Positions 1 through 7,807 of a stretch of 64,000 nt of DNA are shown here, piece by piece; position 1 is the first letter of the stretch; each line of letters opens with the position of its first letter. The notes beneath the pieces were generated by a model. It did no database searches and was not told where the DNA came from. It saw nothing but the letters and a program-made list of their open reading frames with translations. Location of the stretch: the IMG/VR virus record IMGVR_UViG_3300032007_000003, positions 96,001 to 160,000 of that record. One strand, given 5' to 3'. The position numbers and the translations under genes were made by a program. This DNA is from a virus. Lineage: Duplodnaviria; Heunggongvirae; Uroviricota; Caudoviricetes.

Positions 1-513
1 GTTATCTCAAAAGACCAAAGCGATATTAAAAGAATTGTTAAACCATTCTATTGGAAGTATCCATTCTTTAAGTGGGTTTCATTTAAAGAACTCAGAAATT
101 TGTCAAAAGAAGAATTTGCAAAGGAACTTAGAGAGGGTGCAATCACAATTGTTGTTGATGAATCAGCAAGTTTCATGTACTCAGCTATTGAGGCTATGAA
201 GAGTGGTAGTATTACAATGGTTAAAGTTCCTACCACAACTGTAGATTGGGCTAATGGTGAGGAACTTCCAAATTGTTGTGTATGGTTCAATGATTATGAC
301 ACATTGCATAAGCAGATTGCAGGCGTTGTACGTTCTTGGATTACTGATAAAGTACCAACTGTTCTTGCTGAAGAAGCTAAGAAGGTATATGAGGAATTTA
401 CAGAGGATAATACCAAGGCTGATATATTGGCATATGTAACAGATATCCTTGATAAGAGAAAGAAGGAAATGGAAGAGTTAATCACTCAAATTAAAGCCAA
501 GGAGGAAGAATAA
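1..513 (+). CDS. Putative GT-B glycosyltransferase, C-terminal part (5' truncated by window edge)
   Basis: Frame is open from base 1. 'LSKEEFAKELRE...VDESASFMYSAIEAMKSG' resembles the GT4 'E.F....EAM..G' nucleotide-sugar motif. Confidence 0.55.
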   Translation, partial: VISKDQSDIKRIVKPFYWKYPFFKWVSFKELRNLSKEEFAKELREGAITIVVDESASFMYSAIEAMKSGSITMVKVPTTTVDWANGEELPNCCVWFNDYDTLHKQIAGVVRSWITDKVPTVLAEEAKKVYEEFTEDNTKADILAYVTDILDKRKKEMEELITQIKAKEEE

Positions 514-514
514 T

Positions 515-1099
515 ATGAAAGAGTTTTTAGAAAGTAATTTGGTCGGACATATCGATATTGATAAATCGATATGTGTACACAACTATAAAGATTTCAAAAA
601 AACTGAAAAGGGACAAAAAATGATTGAGAAATACCTCGATAGGTGGGGTAAGTTAGGCTTTATTGAGGGACTTAAAGGTGAGATTAGAGAAAGATGCGCT
701 GTTGGTATGGAGCAGTTAGCTGTCTATCTAATATTTGAGGCTGTTGAAAAAGAATTAACTGGACCTTTTGAGACTATCGGTTTCCCAATGATACGTAGAA
801 TATGTTGTGGTTATGAAGCAAAATTGGATAATCTTGATTTATTTAATTTTGAAAAATTCATTAAGTATTGTAAGGAATTGGACATAGCTGAGTTAACTAA
901 TGAAGTTAATAATATTGTTAGTTGGACTCCAATTGATGCGGAAGCAGAAGCTTGTGATTTAGGCTGTGAAATGATAATAAATAGATTCAATGGCGATAAC
1001 AGAAGTTTCGATGAAATTAAAGAAGAATATATTAATAAACTAAAGGAAAAAATTAAGGAAAGATATGAAAGAGATAGGAATAATCATACCGATGCATGA
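515..1099 (+). CDS. Short paralogue of T4-gp23-type major capsid protein (N-terminal segment plus DAEAE helix)
   Basis: 'FLESNLVGHI', 'RWGKLGFIEGLKGEIRE', 'GPFETIGFPMIRRI' and 'IDAEAEACDL' recall gp23-like capsid motifs; only 194 aa. Confidence 0.55.
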   Translation: MKEFLESNLVGHIDIDKSICVHNYKDFKKTEKGQKMIEKYLDRWGKLGFIEGLKGEIRERCAVGMEQLAVYLIFEAVEKELTGPFETIGFPMIRRICCGYEAKLDNLDLFNFEKFIKYCKELDIAELTNEVNNIVSWTPIDAEAEACDLGCEMIINRFNGDNRSFDEIKEEYINKLKEKIKERYERDRNNHTDA

Positions 1100-1868
1100 G
1101 TTCGGTAAAGAGAATATAGAGCTTGTTAACAAGGCAATTGAATCAGTGCCAGAGGGTATGTCAATCTGTCTTTCAGTACCAAAGGGTACTACACCAGCAA
1201 AGGTAAAGGGTCTTTCAGATAGAGCAGCATTAGTACCATCAGTTGAAGAAGGTAGTACATTTGCTGAGTTGGTTGAAAATGGCGTTAAGGCTTTTGCAAA
1301 TAACCCAGATGTTAAGTGGTTTTCAATCCTTGAGTTTGATGATACTTATACACCAATTTGGCTTACAAATGCTAAGAAATATATGGACTTTATGCCAGAT
1401 ACAAGTGTGTTTATGTTCCTTGAGGATATTACAGATTTCAATAATGGAAAATATATTGGTTTCGGTAATGCAGAAGCTTGGGCTTCAAGTTTTTCTAATC
1501 AAATAGGTTACATTGACAATGACTGTCTTCAGAATTATTTTGATTTTTATTTAACTGGCTCTATTTTTAATATTAAGGATTGGCAAGAAGTTGGTGGTCT
1601 TAAACCACAAATTAAACTAACTTTTTGGTATGAATGGCTACTTAGATTAACAAATAAAGGAAAAACTGTTTTTGTTATACCAAAGGTAGGATATAATCAT
1701 AATCTTAATAGGAGTGGTTCGCTTGTTAATCTTTATCGAGATTCAATGTCTAAAGAAGAAATCGAATGGAATTTTGATTTAGCCAAACGTGAATATTTTT
1801 ATCATCCAAACATTAACAGAGACCAATCTAAATTTGAATATAAATCTGATGAAGAGGATAACAACTGA
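1065..1868 (+). CDS. GT-A/GT2-family glycosyltransferase
   Basis: 'IGIIIPMH' N-terminus, 'FSILEFDD' DxD-like motif, 'WQEVGGL'. Confidence 0.75.
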   Translation: MKEIGIIIPMHEFGKENIELVNKAIESVPEGMSICLSVPKGTTPAKVKGLSDRAALVPSVEEGSTFAELVENGVKAFANNPDVKWFSILEFDDTYTPIWLTNAKKYMDFMPDTSVFMFLEDITDFNNGKYIGFGNAEAWASSFSNQIGYIDNDCLQNYFDFYLTGSIFNIKDWQEVGGLKPQIKLTFWYEWLLRLTNKGKTVFVIPKVGYNHNLNRSGSLVNLYRDSMSKEEIEWNFDLAKREYFYHPNINRDQSKFEYKSDEEDNN

Positions 1869-2817
1869 AGAATTTAAAGAAAGAGCGTTTTTAGTTCATA
1901 AAGGCAGATATGTTTATAATAAAACAGATTTGGAACATCGAGATAGTAAGGGAAAAGTAGTTATTACTTGTCCCTTACACGGTGATTTCCATCAAACACC
2001 TAAAAATCATCTTCATGGTCAAGGTTGTCCATTATGTAATCATAGGTCTATTAAATACACTGTAGACGAAATTAAAGATAAAATATTTAATAAGTATGGA
2101 AATAAATATGATGTTTCTTTAATTAAAGAGTATAAAGGTAACACTCAGAAATTGCCGTTAATATGTAAAGAACATGGCTATTTCGAAGCAACATGGAACG
2201 ATTTAGACCACAATCATGGATGTCAAATTTGTGGAAAGATAAGAAATCATGAATTACTTAGAAAAACTAAAGAAAAATTTGTTAATCAATCCATAGTAAT
2301 TCACGGAAACAAATACGATTATTTTTTATCAAATTATATTAATGCTCATACAGATATTTTAATCAAATGTAAAAAATGTGGCTTAATCTTTCCAATGCCT
2401 CCACATGAGCATCTTAAAGGTAAAGGATGTCCTAGATGTAATGAAAGTCATTTAGAAAATGAGGTTAGATTATATCTAGATAGCCATAAAATTAAACACA
2501 TAGATAGGTGTGATAGAAAATATTTTAATTGGTTAAATAGACAACATCTAGATTTTTATCTTCCAGATTATAATATTGCAATTGAATACCAAGGAGAACA
2601 ACATTTTAAAATTGTAGACTTTTTTGGTGGAGAAAATGGCTATAAATACAGATTTATGCTAGATAAAAGAAAGAAAAAACTTTGTGAAGAACATGATATA
2701 AAAATAATTTATTTTACACACGAAAATTATGATTCATTTTTGAATGAAAAAACAATAAAAGAAGCAGAAAAACTATTAAAAGAAATAAATCATAATGGCA
2801 TTAATTGTGATGGTTAA
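1849..2817 (+). mobile_element. Free-standing homing endonuclease (repeated CPxHG/GCPxC zinc-ribbon units plus C-terminal PD-(D/E)XK/Vsr-like nuclease)
   Basis: Three zinc-ribbon units, then 'LDFYLPDYNIAIEYQGEQH'. ATG at 1849 overlaps the upstream gene end. Confidence 0.8.
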
Positions 2818-2985: not shown

Positions 2986-3759
2986 ATGTCAGAAATTTGT
3001 GTAACTGAAGAAAAAGTTAAGAAAAAGAGAGGTAGAAAGCCATCCAAAGAAAGAAAAGGATATTTCTACGAAGAACAAGAGCAAGCTGTTGTAGATTACA
3101 TTTCAACTGATGATGAAAGGGAAAAGAATAAAATCTTCAACACAACGTTAAAGCCAGCATTCACAAAAATGATAGAATCAATTATAAGAAGATATAGTCT
3201 GTACCCACCAGATGAAGAATTCCAACAAACTTTTGATGATACAATGTCTTTTCTTATGACTAAACTATCATGTTTTGACCCTTCAACAAATTATAAAGCA
3301 TATTCATATTGCGGTACAATTTGTAAAAACTATTTAATATATAAAATTAATCAATTTGCAAAGAATCAGAAACGTAATGAGTCATATGATAGTCCAAATG
3401 ATTCAAATCAAGGTGATATTAATGACAATATAAGATTCTCTTATGACGAAACAGACCCTAGAAGGACTTTTCTATCTGAATTGACTGGTAACACAGTTGA
3501 GAATATTAAACGTATTCTAGAGGACAAGGATAAGCTTAGATTGAATGAAAATGAGATTAAGGTGGGAATGACTCTTATTAATCTTATGACAAATTGGGAT
3601 GAGATTTTTGCACAGATGGGTAGTAATAAATTCAATAAAAGTTCCATATTATTGTTTTTGAAGGAAACCACAATGTTGAATACAAAGGAGATAAGAGATG
3701 CACTTAAGGTATATAAGAAAAGATATTATGAAGTTAAGTGGAAACTTATCAATGAATAA
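2986..3759 (+). CDS. Late-transcription sigma factor, T4 gp55-like
   Basis: Basic N-terminus then 'GYFYEEQEQAVVDY' and 'FDPSTNYKAYSYCGTICKNYLI', resembling the gp55 region-2 'FDP...NPFAYFTQI' pattern. Confidence 0.6.
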   Translation: MSEICVTEEKVKKKRGRKPSKERKGYFYEEQEQAVVDYISTDDEREKNKIFNTTLKPAFTKMIESIIRRYSLYPPDEEFQQTFDDTMSFLMTKLSCFDPSTNYKAYSYCGTICKNYLIYKINQFAKNQKRNESYDSPNDSNQGDINDNIRFSYDETDPRRTFLSELTGNTVENIKRILEDKDKLRLNENEIKVGMTLINLMTNWDEIFAQMGSNKFNKSSILLFLKETTMLNTKEIRDALKVYKKRYYEVKWKLINE

Positions 3760-6708: not shown

Positions 6709-6900
6709 ATGAAGAAAAAAGTAGATTTCACGAAATTAAGTAACGCAGAAATTAACATTAAGATTATGGGTTACGAGAACGAATACAATGTAAAAAAAGA
6801 TAAAATCATTGCATTGGTTCAAGAATTAACAGAGCTTGATGAATTGTACATCAAGGCAAATGAAGAGTTACAAAAAAGAGGCGCATTAAAGGATGGCTAA
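6709..6900 (+). CDS. Small coiled-coil hypothetical protein
   Basis: ORF overlapping the next start. Confidence 0.55.
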   Translation: MKKKVDFTKLSNAEINIKIMGYENEYNVKKDKIIALVQELTELDELYIKANEELQKRGALKDG

Positions 6901-7807
6901 TATAATTGTAAAAGTCGGAAAGGTTAGAGAGGTCGAGAATGTCTATTCAAAGAATGGCAGTGATGGCATGCGTGTTAGAGCAGAATTGACAGAAGATAAA
7001 CCAAGGAAATTAGAAGATATTCCTTGGGCATTCCCTTTATTGCCTAAAGTTTTCCATGTATTACCAAAAGTAGGTGAAGCGGTTTTGGTTGTTTGTGAGG
7101 ATAGTAACAACAATAAATCCCAAAGATACTATATTGGACCAGTTATTGCTCAACCTCAATACATGACTTATGACAAGAAGGAGGATGCTACTTCCACTTT
7201 TAAGAATTTCGAATTTAACCCTATCGAGAAAATATCTAACTTTGACATGGCTAGAGGTGCTTTCCCAAACAATGAAGATGTATCTGTTGTTGGTAGAGGT
7301 TCTGAAGATGTTACGCTAAAATATAATGAATCCACAAAGAAGAGTGAGGTTGATATTCGTGCAGGAATTCGTACAGAGCCATCAATGGCTAGAGAAAATG
7401 ATTTGATAGGAAATATCATGTTTAATAATATAGACCCAGCTTATATACAGTTGAAATATAAGAGTGGACTTGCAAAGAACCAAAACCATCAAGTATCTAG
7501 CATGATTAATATGGTAGCTGACAATATTAACCTTATCAGCAATAGGGATAATAACGTTTGTGATAATGTACACGATAAGGATGCTTTGATTAAGGATGAA
7601 GATTCTGATATTGTAATGGATAGATTACATCAAGTACCAAAGGGCGATAAACTTGTCGAACTCCTTACAATTATGAAAGGCGCAATTATGAATCATGTAC
7701 ACCCTTGGGCTGGTATGGAACAATGTGGTGATTGGCCAGGTTACATTAAACAACTTGAAGGTTATGACATTAATTCAATCCTCTCAGAATACGTTAGAAT
7801 ATCTTAA
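6893..7807 (+). CDS. Baseplate central spike protein, gp5/VgrG-like
   Basis: N-terminal OB-fold pattern 'GMRVRA..IPWAFPLLP...LPKVGEAVLV...RYYIG'; C-terminal 'NHVHP' HxH spike-tip motif. Confidence 0.65.
   Translation: MANIIVKVGKVREVENVYSKNGSDGMRVRAELTEDKPRKLEDIPWAFPLLPKVFHVLPKVGEAVLVVCEDSNNNKSQRYYIGPVIAQPQYMTYDKKEDATSTFKNFEFNPIEKISNFDMARGAFPNNEDVSVVGRGSEDVTLKYNESTKKSEVDIRAGIRTEPSMARENDLIGNIMFNNIDPAYIQLKYKSGLAKNQNHQVSSMINMVADNINLISNRDNNVCDNVHDKDALIKDEDSDIVMDRLHQVPKGDKLVELLTIMKGAIMNHVHPWAGMEQCGDWPGYIKQLEGYDINSILSEYVRIS

Follow-up and report, generated by a model that had tools for sequence, protein, structure and literature searches.

A 194-residue derivative of the major capsid protein, encoded among glycosyltransferase-like genes of an uncultured T4-like phage

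The gene and its neighbourhood

The window that we analysed is a stretch of 64,000 nucleotides corresponding to positions 96001-160000 of the 412,435-bp virus record of an uncultured T4-like phage. Close to its beginning, the program-made list of open reading frames places a 194-aa ORF at 515..1099 (+), which belongs to a tightly packed block of co-directional genes (230, 75, 328, 199, 111, 360, 194 and 267 aa). We refer to its product as the mini-MCP, for reasons of homology to the major capsid protein (MCP) that are detailed below. The features of the locus, in window coordinates, are the following:

1-513 (+): 3' part of the upstream 360-aa gene; its stop codon (511-513) ends 1 nt before the ATG of the 194-aa ORF
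499-505 (+): Shine-Dalgarno-like AAGGAGG, read from the sequence, upstream of the ATG at 515
515-1099 (+): mini-MCP ORF, 194 aa, a compact all-alpha protein (AF2 model, dN/dS)
515-811 (+): residues 1-99, module homologous to MCP 1-84 (BLASTP, hhalign)
563-610 (+): residues 17-32, a 16-residue insert missing from the MCP (alignment gap; invariant columns in the close clade)
644-673 (+): residues 44-53, W..LGF.EGL block, predicted exposed loop (non-helical in the AF2 model)
731-742 (+): residues 73-76, I-F-E|A, putative gp21-type prohead-protease site (soft loop in the AF2 model; alignment)
767-799 (+): residues 85-95, FET..FP.IRR block, counterpart of T4 gp23 91-101
932-988 (+): residues 140-158, IDAEAE helix, matching the long P-domain ('spine') helix of the MCP at 465-490
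1065-1099 (+): 35-nt overlap between the end of the 194-aa ORF and the start of the next gene (sequence)
1065-1868 (+): downstream 267-aa gene, GT-A fold, conserved LEFDD (DxD-like) motif (AF2 and Foldseek)

The AAGGAGG motif points to a translational coupling of the 194-aa ORF to the upstream gene. The preliminary description of this locus placed the ORF among glycosyltransferase genes, and this setting was borne out. The 230-aa gene located 3.3 kb upstream is a certified Glyco_tranf_2_5. The AF2 model of the 267-aa downstream product has a pLDDT of 65, with its first 120 residues being confident, and in Foldseek it has 344 matches in the PDB (E of 0.001 or better), with GT-A enzymes at the top; Glycos_transf_2 clusters are also found among its Atlas look-alikes. 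The 360-aa upstream gene is GT1/GT-B-like by Atlas features only (Glycos_transf_1 clusters among its look-alikes, 0.98-0.99), and as it has no match in Pfam or NCBIfam, this assignment is to be taken as a lead. We also considered a glycosylation site in the conserved ...SSDNTDA tail of the mini-MCP, but dropped it: this tail is kept only where it overlaps the next gene and is absent from a relative (L027) that has no such overlap, so that its conservation is a by-product of the overlap.

The ATATTTATA motif, which we regard as promoter-like, is found at 15 sites in the window (including 9525, 10476, 17011, 24425 and 39737) for an expectation of 3.8, and most of these sites precede a start codon by 15-30 nt. 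Neither the block holding the 194-aa ORF nor its upstream region contains this motif, and no promoter-like motif was found for the block. Further downstream, a 257-aa protein (window 2986-3759, +) whose position is conserved in relatives has a weak Sigma70_r2 match (E 0.075) and may be a late sigma factor of the phage.

Relationship to the capsid protein of the same phage

The Gp23-type MCP of this genome is a protein of 677 aa encoded at G000:C1:52141-54174, 44 kb upstream of the ORF, which thus lies outside the head module, as initially described. The Pfam Gp23 model finds this one gene and no second full-length MCP paralogue in the 412-kb genome, meaning that the phage has no detectable gp24-type vertex paralogue. 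The preliminary description likened the first ~100 residues of the ORF to the N-terminus of gp23-type capsid proteins. The alignment to the phage's own MCP gives a clear similarity: all the motifs that had been quoted are present in the ORF and align with the MCP, and BLASTP pairs ORF residues 1-96 with MCP residues 1-81 at 39% identity (E 2e-16). Profile-profile comparison of the N-terminal module gives E 2.2e-17 in hhalign, and 6e-22 with a deep profile. The homology spans residues 1-99 of the ORF and 1-84 of the MCP, i.e., the propeptide-like part and the start of the N-arm.

Within this module, the same residue is found at 12 positions across 95 small proteins of the family and 34 MCP N-termini: W44, G48, F49, G52, L53, A62, E66, A69, F90, P91, R94 and R95 (for W44, G48, F49, G52 and L53, the conservation threshold is 70% or more in both groups). 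Other features of the small family are missing from the MCP, namely the insert at residues 17-32, in which I19, V21, H22, Y24, D26, F27 and T30 are conserved in the close clade, the F110/F112/F115 set and the F158-N159-G160 segment. These conserved features that are specific to the family point to a function beyond mimicry.

The preliminary description also noticed that, after its N-terminal part, the ORF jumps to an IDAEAE helix that normally lies hundreds of residues later, and the profile comparisons agree with it. In pairwise BLAST, the IDAEAE segment has no significant match to the MCP (E 0.71). With a profile of the C-terminal half of the family, the best match within the MCP is at 465-490 (hhalign, E 8.4e-5, 60% probability), the controls being a reversed MCP at E 0.45 and 40 column shuffles of which the best reaches 0.37. 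This second match is located ~385 residues past the end of the first one and in the same order as in the ORF. The HMM of the C-terminal half, searched against all 3690 frames of the genome, matches MCP 467-494 (E 6e-4), and it also matches weakly the equivalent helix of T4 gp23 (272-315, ...VHGMDADAEL...). A small frame at G000:C1:397891-398142, which scored E 1.7e-4 with the same HMM, was set aside as a chance match because its translation is devoid of any family motif. Across the wide family, D141 and E143 are nearly invariant. The 26 aligned columns lend moderate support to a homology between the IDAEAE helix and the spine helix (the long helix of the P domain) of the MCP.

What is missing is the PF07068-type HK97 body (A and P domains, E-loop, mixed alpha/beta structure, ~300 residues or more), for which the 194-aa ORF is indeed too short, as had been remarked: its AF2 model is strandless, and neither the ORF nor any of 79 family members has a Pfam Gp23 (PF07068) match. 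Sequence homology therefore supports the initial idea of an internally deleted capsid derivative, i.e., an MCP from which the N-terminal part and the IDAEAE helix were kept, without everything between and after.

A family without a database name: origin, selection and fold

An exhaustive profile search against 1.84 billion representatives returned 313 matches at E 0.001 or better. Among the matches listed, two kinds can be distinguished, MCP N-termini on the one hand, and many small proteins of 120-210 aa on the other hand, which match over both the MCP-like module and the D.EAE helix. Three metagenome proteins of 250-370 aa (P0241, P0255 and P0348) are tandem fusions of two mini-MCP modules. 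One match of 3518 aa (P0305) was rejected: it is a surface protein of bacterial origin, with repeats that only look like the FE..FP.IR block. The ORF has no family in Pfam, PHROGs or NCBIfam, the small proteins tested, among them ten distant members, have none in Pfam or PHROGs, and three family members searched with tblastn against 50,697 deposited phage records gave no match. The literature searched contains no description of such a family, nor of a truncated capsid paralogue of this kind.

In a tree of the common module (95 small proteins, 34 MCPs, 69 columns), the small proteins and the MCPs fall on opposite sides of one branch with an SH-aLRT of 99.7; the 69 columns resolve the inner branching poorly, yet the split between the two groups is strong. 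Since a single branch parts the small proteins from the MCP N-termini, the family arose once, and the tree indicates one old duplication followed by truncation rather than repeated derivation or gene conversion. Capsid genes can thus give up the body that forms the shell and live on as a widespread new family that carries no database name.

The gene is not a decaying remnant. Its close homologues, 139 proteins of 190-200 aa and 54-100% identity, are found on metagenome contigs of up to 430 kb, with both halves conserved. Pairwise dN/dS is 0.12-0.22 for the whole gene, 0.08-0.15 for the N-terminal half and 0.12-0.42 for the C-terminal half, values that are rough because dS is near saturation; as estimated from these sequences, purifying selection acts on both halves and the gene is maintained, which is the opposite of neutral decay. 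The small protein evolves faster than the MCP (54-78% vs. 82-95% identity among the relatives listed).

Based on a 79-sequence alignment, AF2 predicts a compact all-alpha domain of ten helices with a mean pLDDT of 92.3 and a pTM of 0.88, in which the sole soft internal spot is a dip in pLDDT at residues 71-80. The 194-aa protein is thus confidently predicted to fold autonomously. In Foldseek, the model has no match in the PDB, and its only match in BFVD is another uncharacterised member of the family.

A possible role in the prohead and its alternatives

The MCP N-terminus of this phage aligns with T4 gp23 (E 1e-8), so that the W..L.EGL block corresponds to T4 gp23 13-22 and the FP.IRR block to T4 gp23 95-101. 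In T4, the first 65 residues of gp23 are removed by gp21 (PMC9958956), and the N-terminal region lies inside the unexpanded head, where it probably contacts the scaffolding core (PMC9546572). The T4 head-length mutations A66D, A94V and G97S map to this region (PMC9546572), and A94V and G97S fall in the counterpart (T4 gp23 91-101) of the FET..FP.IRR block. Moreover, gp23 Met98 clusters in space with His282 and Met284 (PMC9546572), which in the gp23 sequence come just before the DADAEL helix. In T4, the counterparts of the two retained pieces are therefore close to each other in three dimensions. As for the 12 common positions, they sit, in the MCP, in a part that is removed or remodelled, and are therefore best explained by assembly contacts.

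The genome also encodes a Peptidase_S77 (gp21-type) prohead protease (PF03420, E 4.5e-24; phrog_207, E 2e-40). Between the protease and the MCP lies the gene of a very acidic 482-aa protein (pI 4.3; G000:C1:50620-52068, +, equivalent to L028:6621-8069), which is strongly conserved, has a helical C-terminal part and no PHROGs family, and is the positional counterpart of gp22 and likely the scaffold. An acidic protein of 109 aa (L028:3954-4283) has an LTE/IVE-type leader like those of the small T4 core proteins. A complex prediction for the small protein and the 482-aa scaffold candidate, run without controls, scored 0.01 and speaks neither way on binding.

The rule for cleavage by gp21 is (L/I)-x-E. 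In the close clade, E75 is invariant within I-F-E|A and aligns with the I-Y-E|A of the MCP, whose E/A pair is conserved among diverse MCPs. The gp21-type protease may thus cleave the mini-MCP at I-F-E75|A, in this clade only: across the wide family, an [LI]xE site is found in 41 of the 79 members, so that cleavage cannot be a family-wide property. The putative leader ending at E75 would comprise 75 residues, which are part of the folded domain in the AF2 model.

Taken together, we tentatively favour, at somewhat less than an even chance, a reading in which the mini-MCP reproduces, as a free protein, the module of the MCP that faces the core, and docks to the same partner in the assembling prohead. 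A single old derivation from a Gp23-type capsid gene produced an autonomous helical domain that lost the whole HK97 body; all it retained is the portion located inside the immature head (the N-terminus, which is propeptide-like, and the opening residues of the N-arm), together with the start of the long P-domain helix. As the protein keeps the residues that the MCP conserves in its removable, core-facing part, its most likely partner would be that of the MCP N-terminus. This would be the scaffolding core, with the portal and the protease as further possibilities. The mini-MCP would then act as an accessory protein of the prohead core, which either rides into the head or tunes the contacts between shell and core, and which in this clade might be cut by the gp21-type protease at I-F-E75|A. 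The role of assembly modulator, which was among those suggested initially, is compatible with this scenario. Several observations nevertheless go against it: the gene is outside the head module and apparently coupled in translation between two glycosyltransferase-like genes, ATATTTATA is found neither upstream nor in the block, [LI]xE is limited to 41/79 members, and the family has conserved features of its own.

Several known systems offer partial parallels. The N-terminal region of T4 gp23 is homologous to the mini-MCP through the MCP of this phage, and it is located inside the immature head and cut by the prohead protease (PMC9958956, PMC9546572); here, however, it is a separate gene product, fused to a segment resembling the spine helix and to extra helices in a closed domain. 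Among model phages, the closest counterpart is T4 gp61.1, an uncharacterised protein of 54 aa (gene 61.1, L030:2967-3131, -), of which residues 2-38 are 46% identical to gp23 57-93 over 37 aa (pairwise E 1e-8), the context of the cleavage site being included. Here too, a portion of the capsid N-terminus is reproduced in a separate protein whose gene is remote from the head genes. Unlike the mini-MCP, it is smaller, it carries a different piece (the cleavage site and 66-93) with no part of the spine helix, and it is too short for a folded domain; no relation between gp61.1 and the mini-MCP family is detectable. The start of gp61.1 resembles the targeting peptide of the internal proteins. The T4 vertex protein gp24 is also an MCP paralogue encoded by a separate gene, but it retains the whole HK97 fold and forms pentons, whereas the mini-MCP has ~110 MCP-derived residues and no beta structure.

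As a functional model, we propose the T4 core and internal proteins (gp67, gp68, IPI-III and Alt), small proteins that are taken up into the prohead core, where gp21 cuts or degrades them. Their targeting peptide of ~10 residues is unrelated to gp23, however, while the packaging of the mini-MCP is a proposal only. Direct comparison and PHROGs reveal no sequence relation of the mini-MCP to gp67, gp68 or gp22, and we found no report in the literature of a similarity of gp67 or gp68 to gp23. SaPI CpmB and P4 Sid, the capsid-size redirectors encoded by satellites, are small helical proteins that carry or imitate a morphogenetic interaction surface and thereby alter assembly. These are encoded by parasites of the phage, whereas the mini-MCP is a conserved gene of the phage itself that copies its shell protein and not the scaffold.

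The core of T4-type proheads has never been seen, and in solved heads the N-terminus is disordered or already cut (PMC9958956, PMC9546572). To see how the T4-type capsid N-terminus engages the scaffolding core, and how this sets head size, the family offers the N-terminal module as a small protein kept intact by selection, and with it a direct handle for binding and structural studies.

The same homology and the same common residues would equally fit a competitor that stays soluble, does not enter the head, and deprives the MCP of the scaffold, the portal or the protease by titration, thereby setting the timing, the nucleation or the size of the assembly. Scaffold mimics encoded by satellites act in a similar manner. 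The T4 head-length mutations that fall in the retained block and the tandem forms with two modules would suit such a competitor, but nothing separates it from the accessory core protein that we prefer, and the position of the gene is silent on dosage and timing. We hold it to be a serious rival, though a rather unlikely one. A broader possibility, which we put forward as a speculation with a low chance of being right, is that this soluble, self-folding replica of a core-facing capsid patch acts as a separate control of head assembly, either by setting how 400-kb heads nucleate or how large they become, or else, for this clade, by bringing the two co-translated glycosyltransferases into the prohead. 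If so, the shell protein would have spawned its own trans-acting assembly factor.

The glycosyltransferases lead to another alternative, in which the mini-MCP is the partner or adaptor of the two enzymes that flank it and binds one or both of them, for instance to guide them to the prohead or to the capsid protein, or to act as their regulator. The architecture of the locus speaks for it, with an upstream stop located 1 nt before the start, a strong Shine-Dalgarno, an overlap of 35 nt with the next gene and a GT-A fold encoded downstream, and so does the order GT-B-like/small protein/GT-A-like, which is retained in relatives whose small protein is just 34-41% identical. But the entire 15-kb region is syntenic among these phages, so that the conserved order is not specific to these three genes; distant members of the family adjoin genes other than glycosyltransferases, and the conserved tail is an artefact of the overlap. 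We give such an adaptor, also a serious rival, about the same low probability as the soluble competitor.

A less probable alternative, which had also been raised from the sequence, is that the mini-MCP misleads, as a decoy, or blocks a capsid-sensing host defence of the Lit or CapRel type. It does copy a surface of the MCP, is encoded outside the structural module and evolves faster than the MCP. Yet purifying selection on both halves and the old, single origin of the family do not favour this hypothesis. For Lit, the sensed epitope is the Gol peptide of T4 (gp23 93-122), and only the start of its counterpart is kept here (T4 gp23 91-101 and a few residues, followed by divergence). Besides, a copy of the trigger should activate the sensor and not block it. 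We therefore regard a decoy as quite improbable.

Lastly, a transcription-related role, in which the C-terminal half would be a sigma region-2-like bundle acting with the sigma-like late gene found 2 kb downstream (Sigma70_r2, E 0.075), is very improbable, for although VIA-align superposes the stretch 107-192 onto numerous sigma region-2 domains, ECF ones among them, at Z 5-6.6, a Z below 8 is in the noise range for helical bundles according to the tool's own note, none of the 79 members has a Pfam sigma match and Foldseek returns nothing for the model.

Two further observations concern the surroundings of these genes. By eye, and with no HMM match, the start of a 304-aa protein (window 6893-7807, +) resembles the OB domain of gp5/VgrG-type baseplate spikes. 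Between the GT-A-like and the sigma-like genes, an HNH/homing endonuclease gene (window 1789-2817, +; phrog_559, E 7e-59) is missing at the same place in the relatives L018 and L027, and is thus a recent mobile insertion; more such nucleases are found around the MCP gene, at 48.7-49.7 kb, 54.4-56.5 kb and 63.2 kb of G000.
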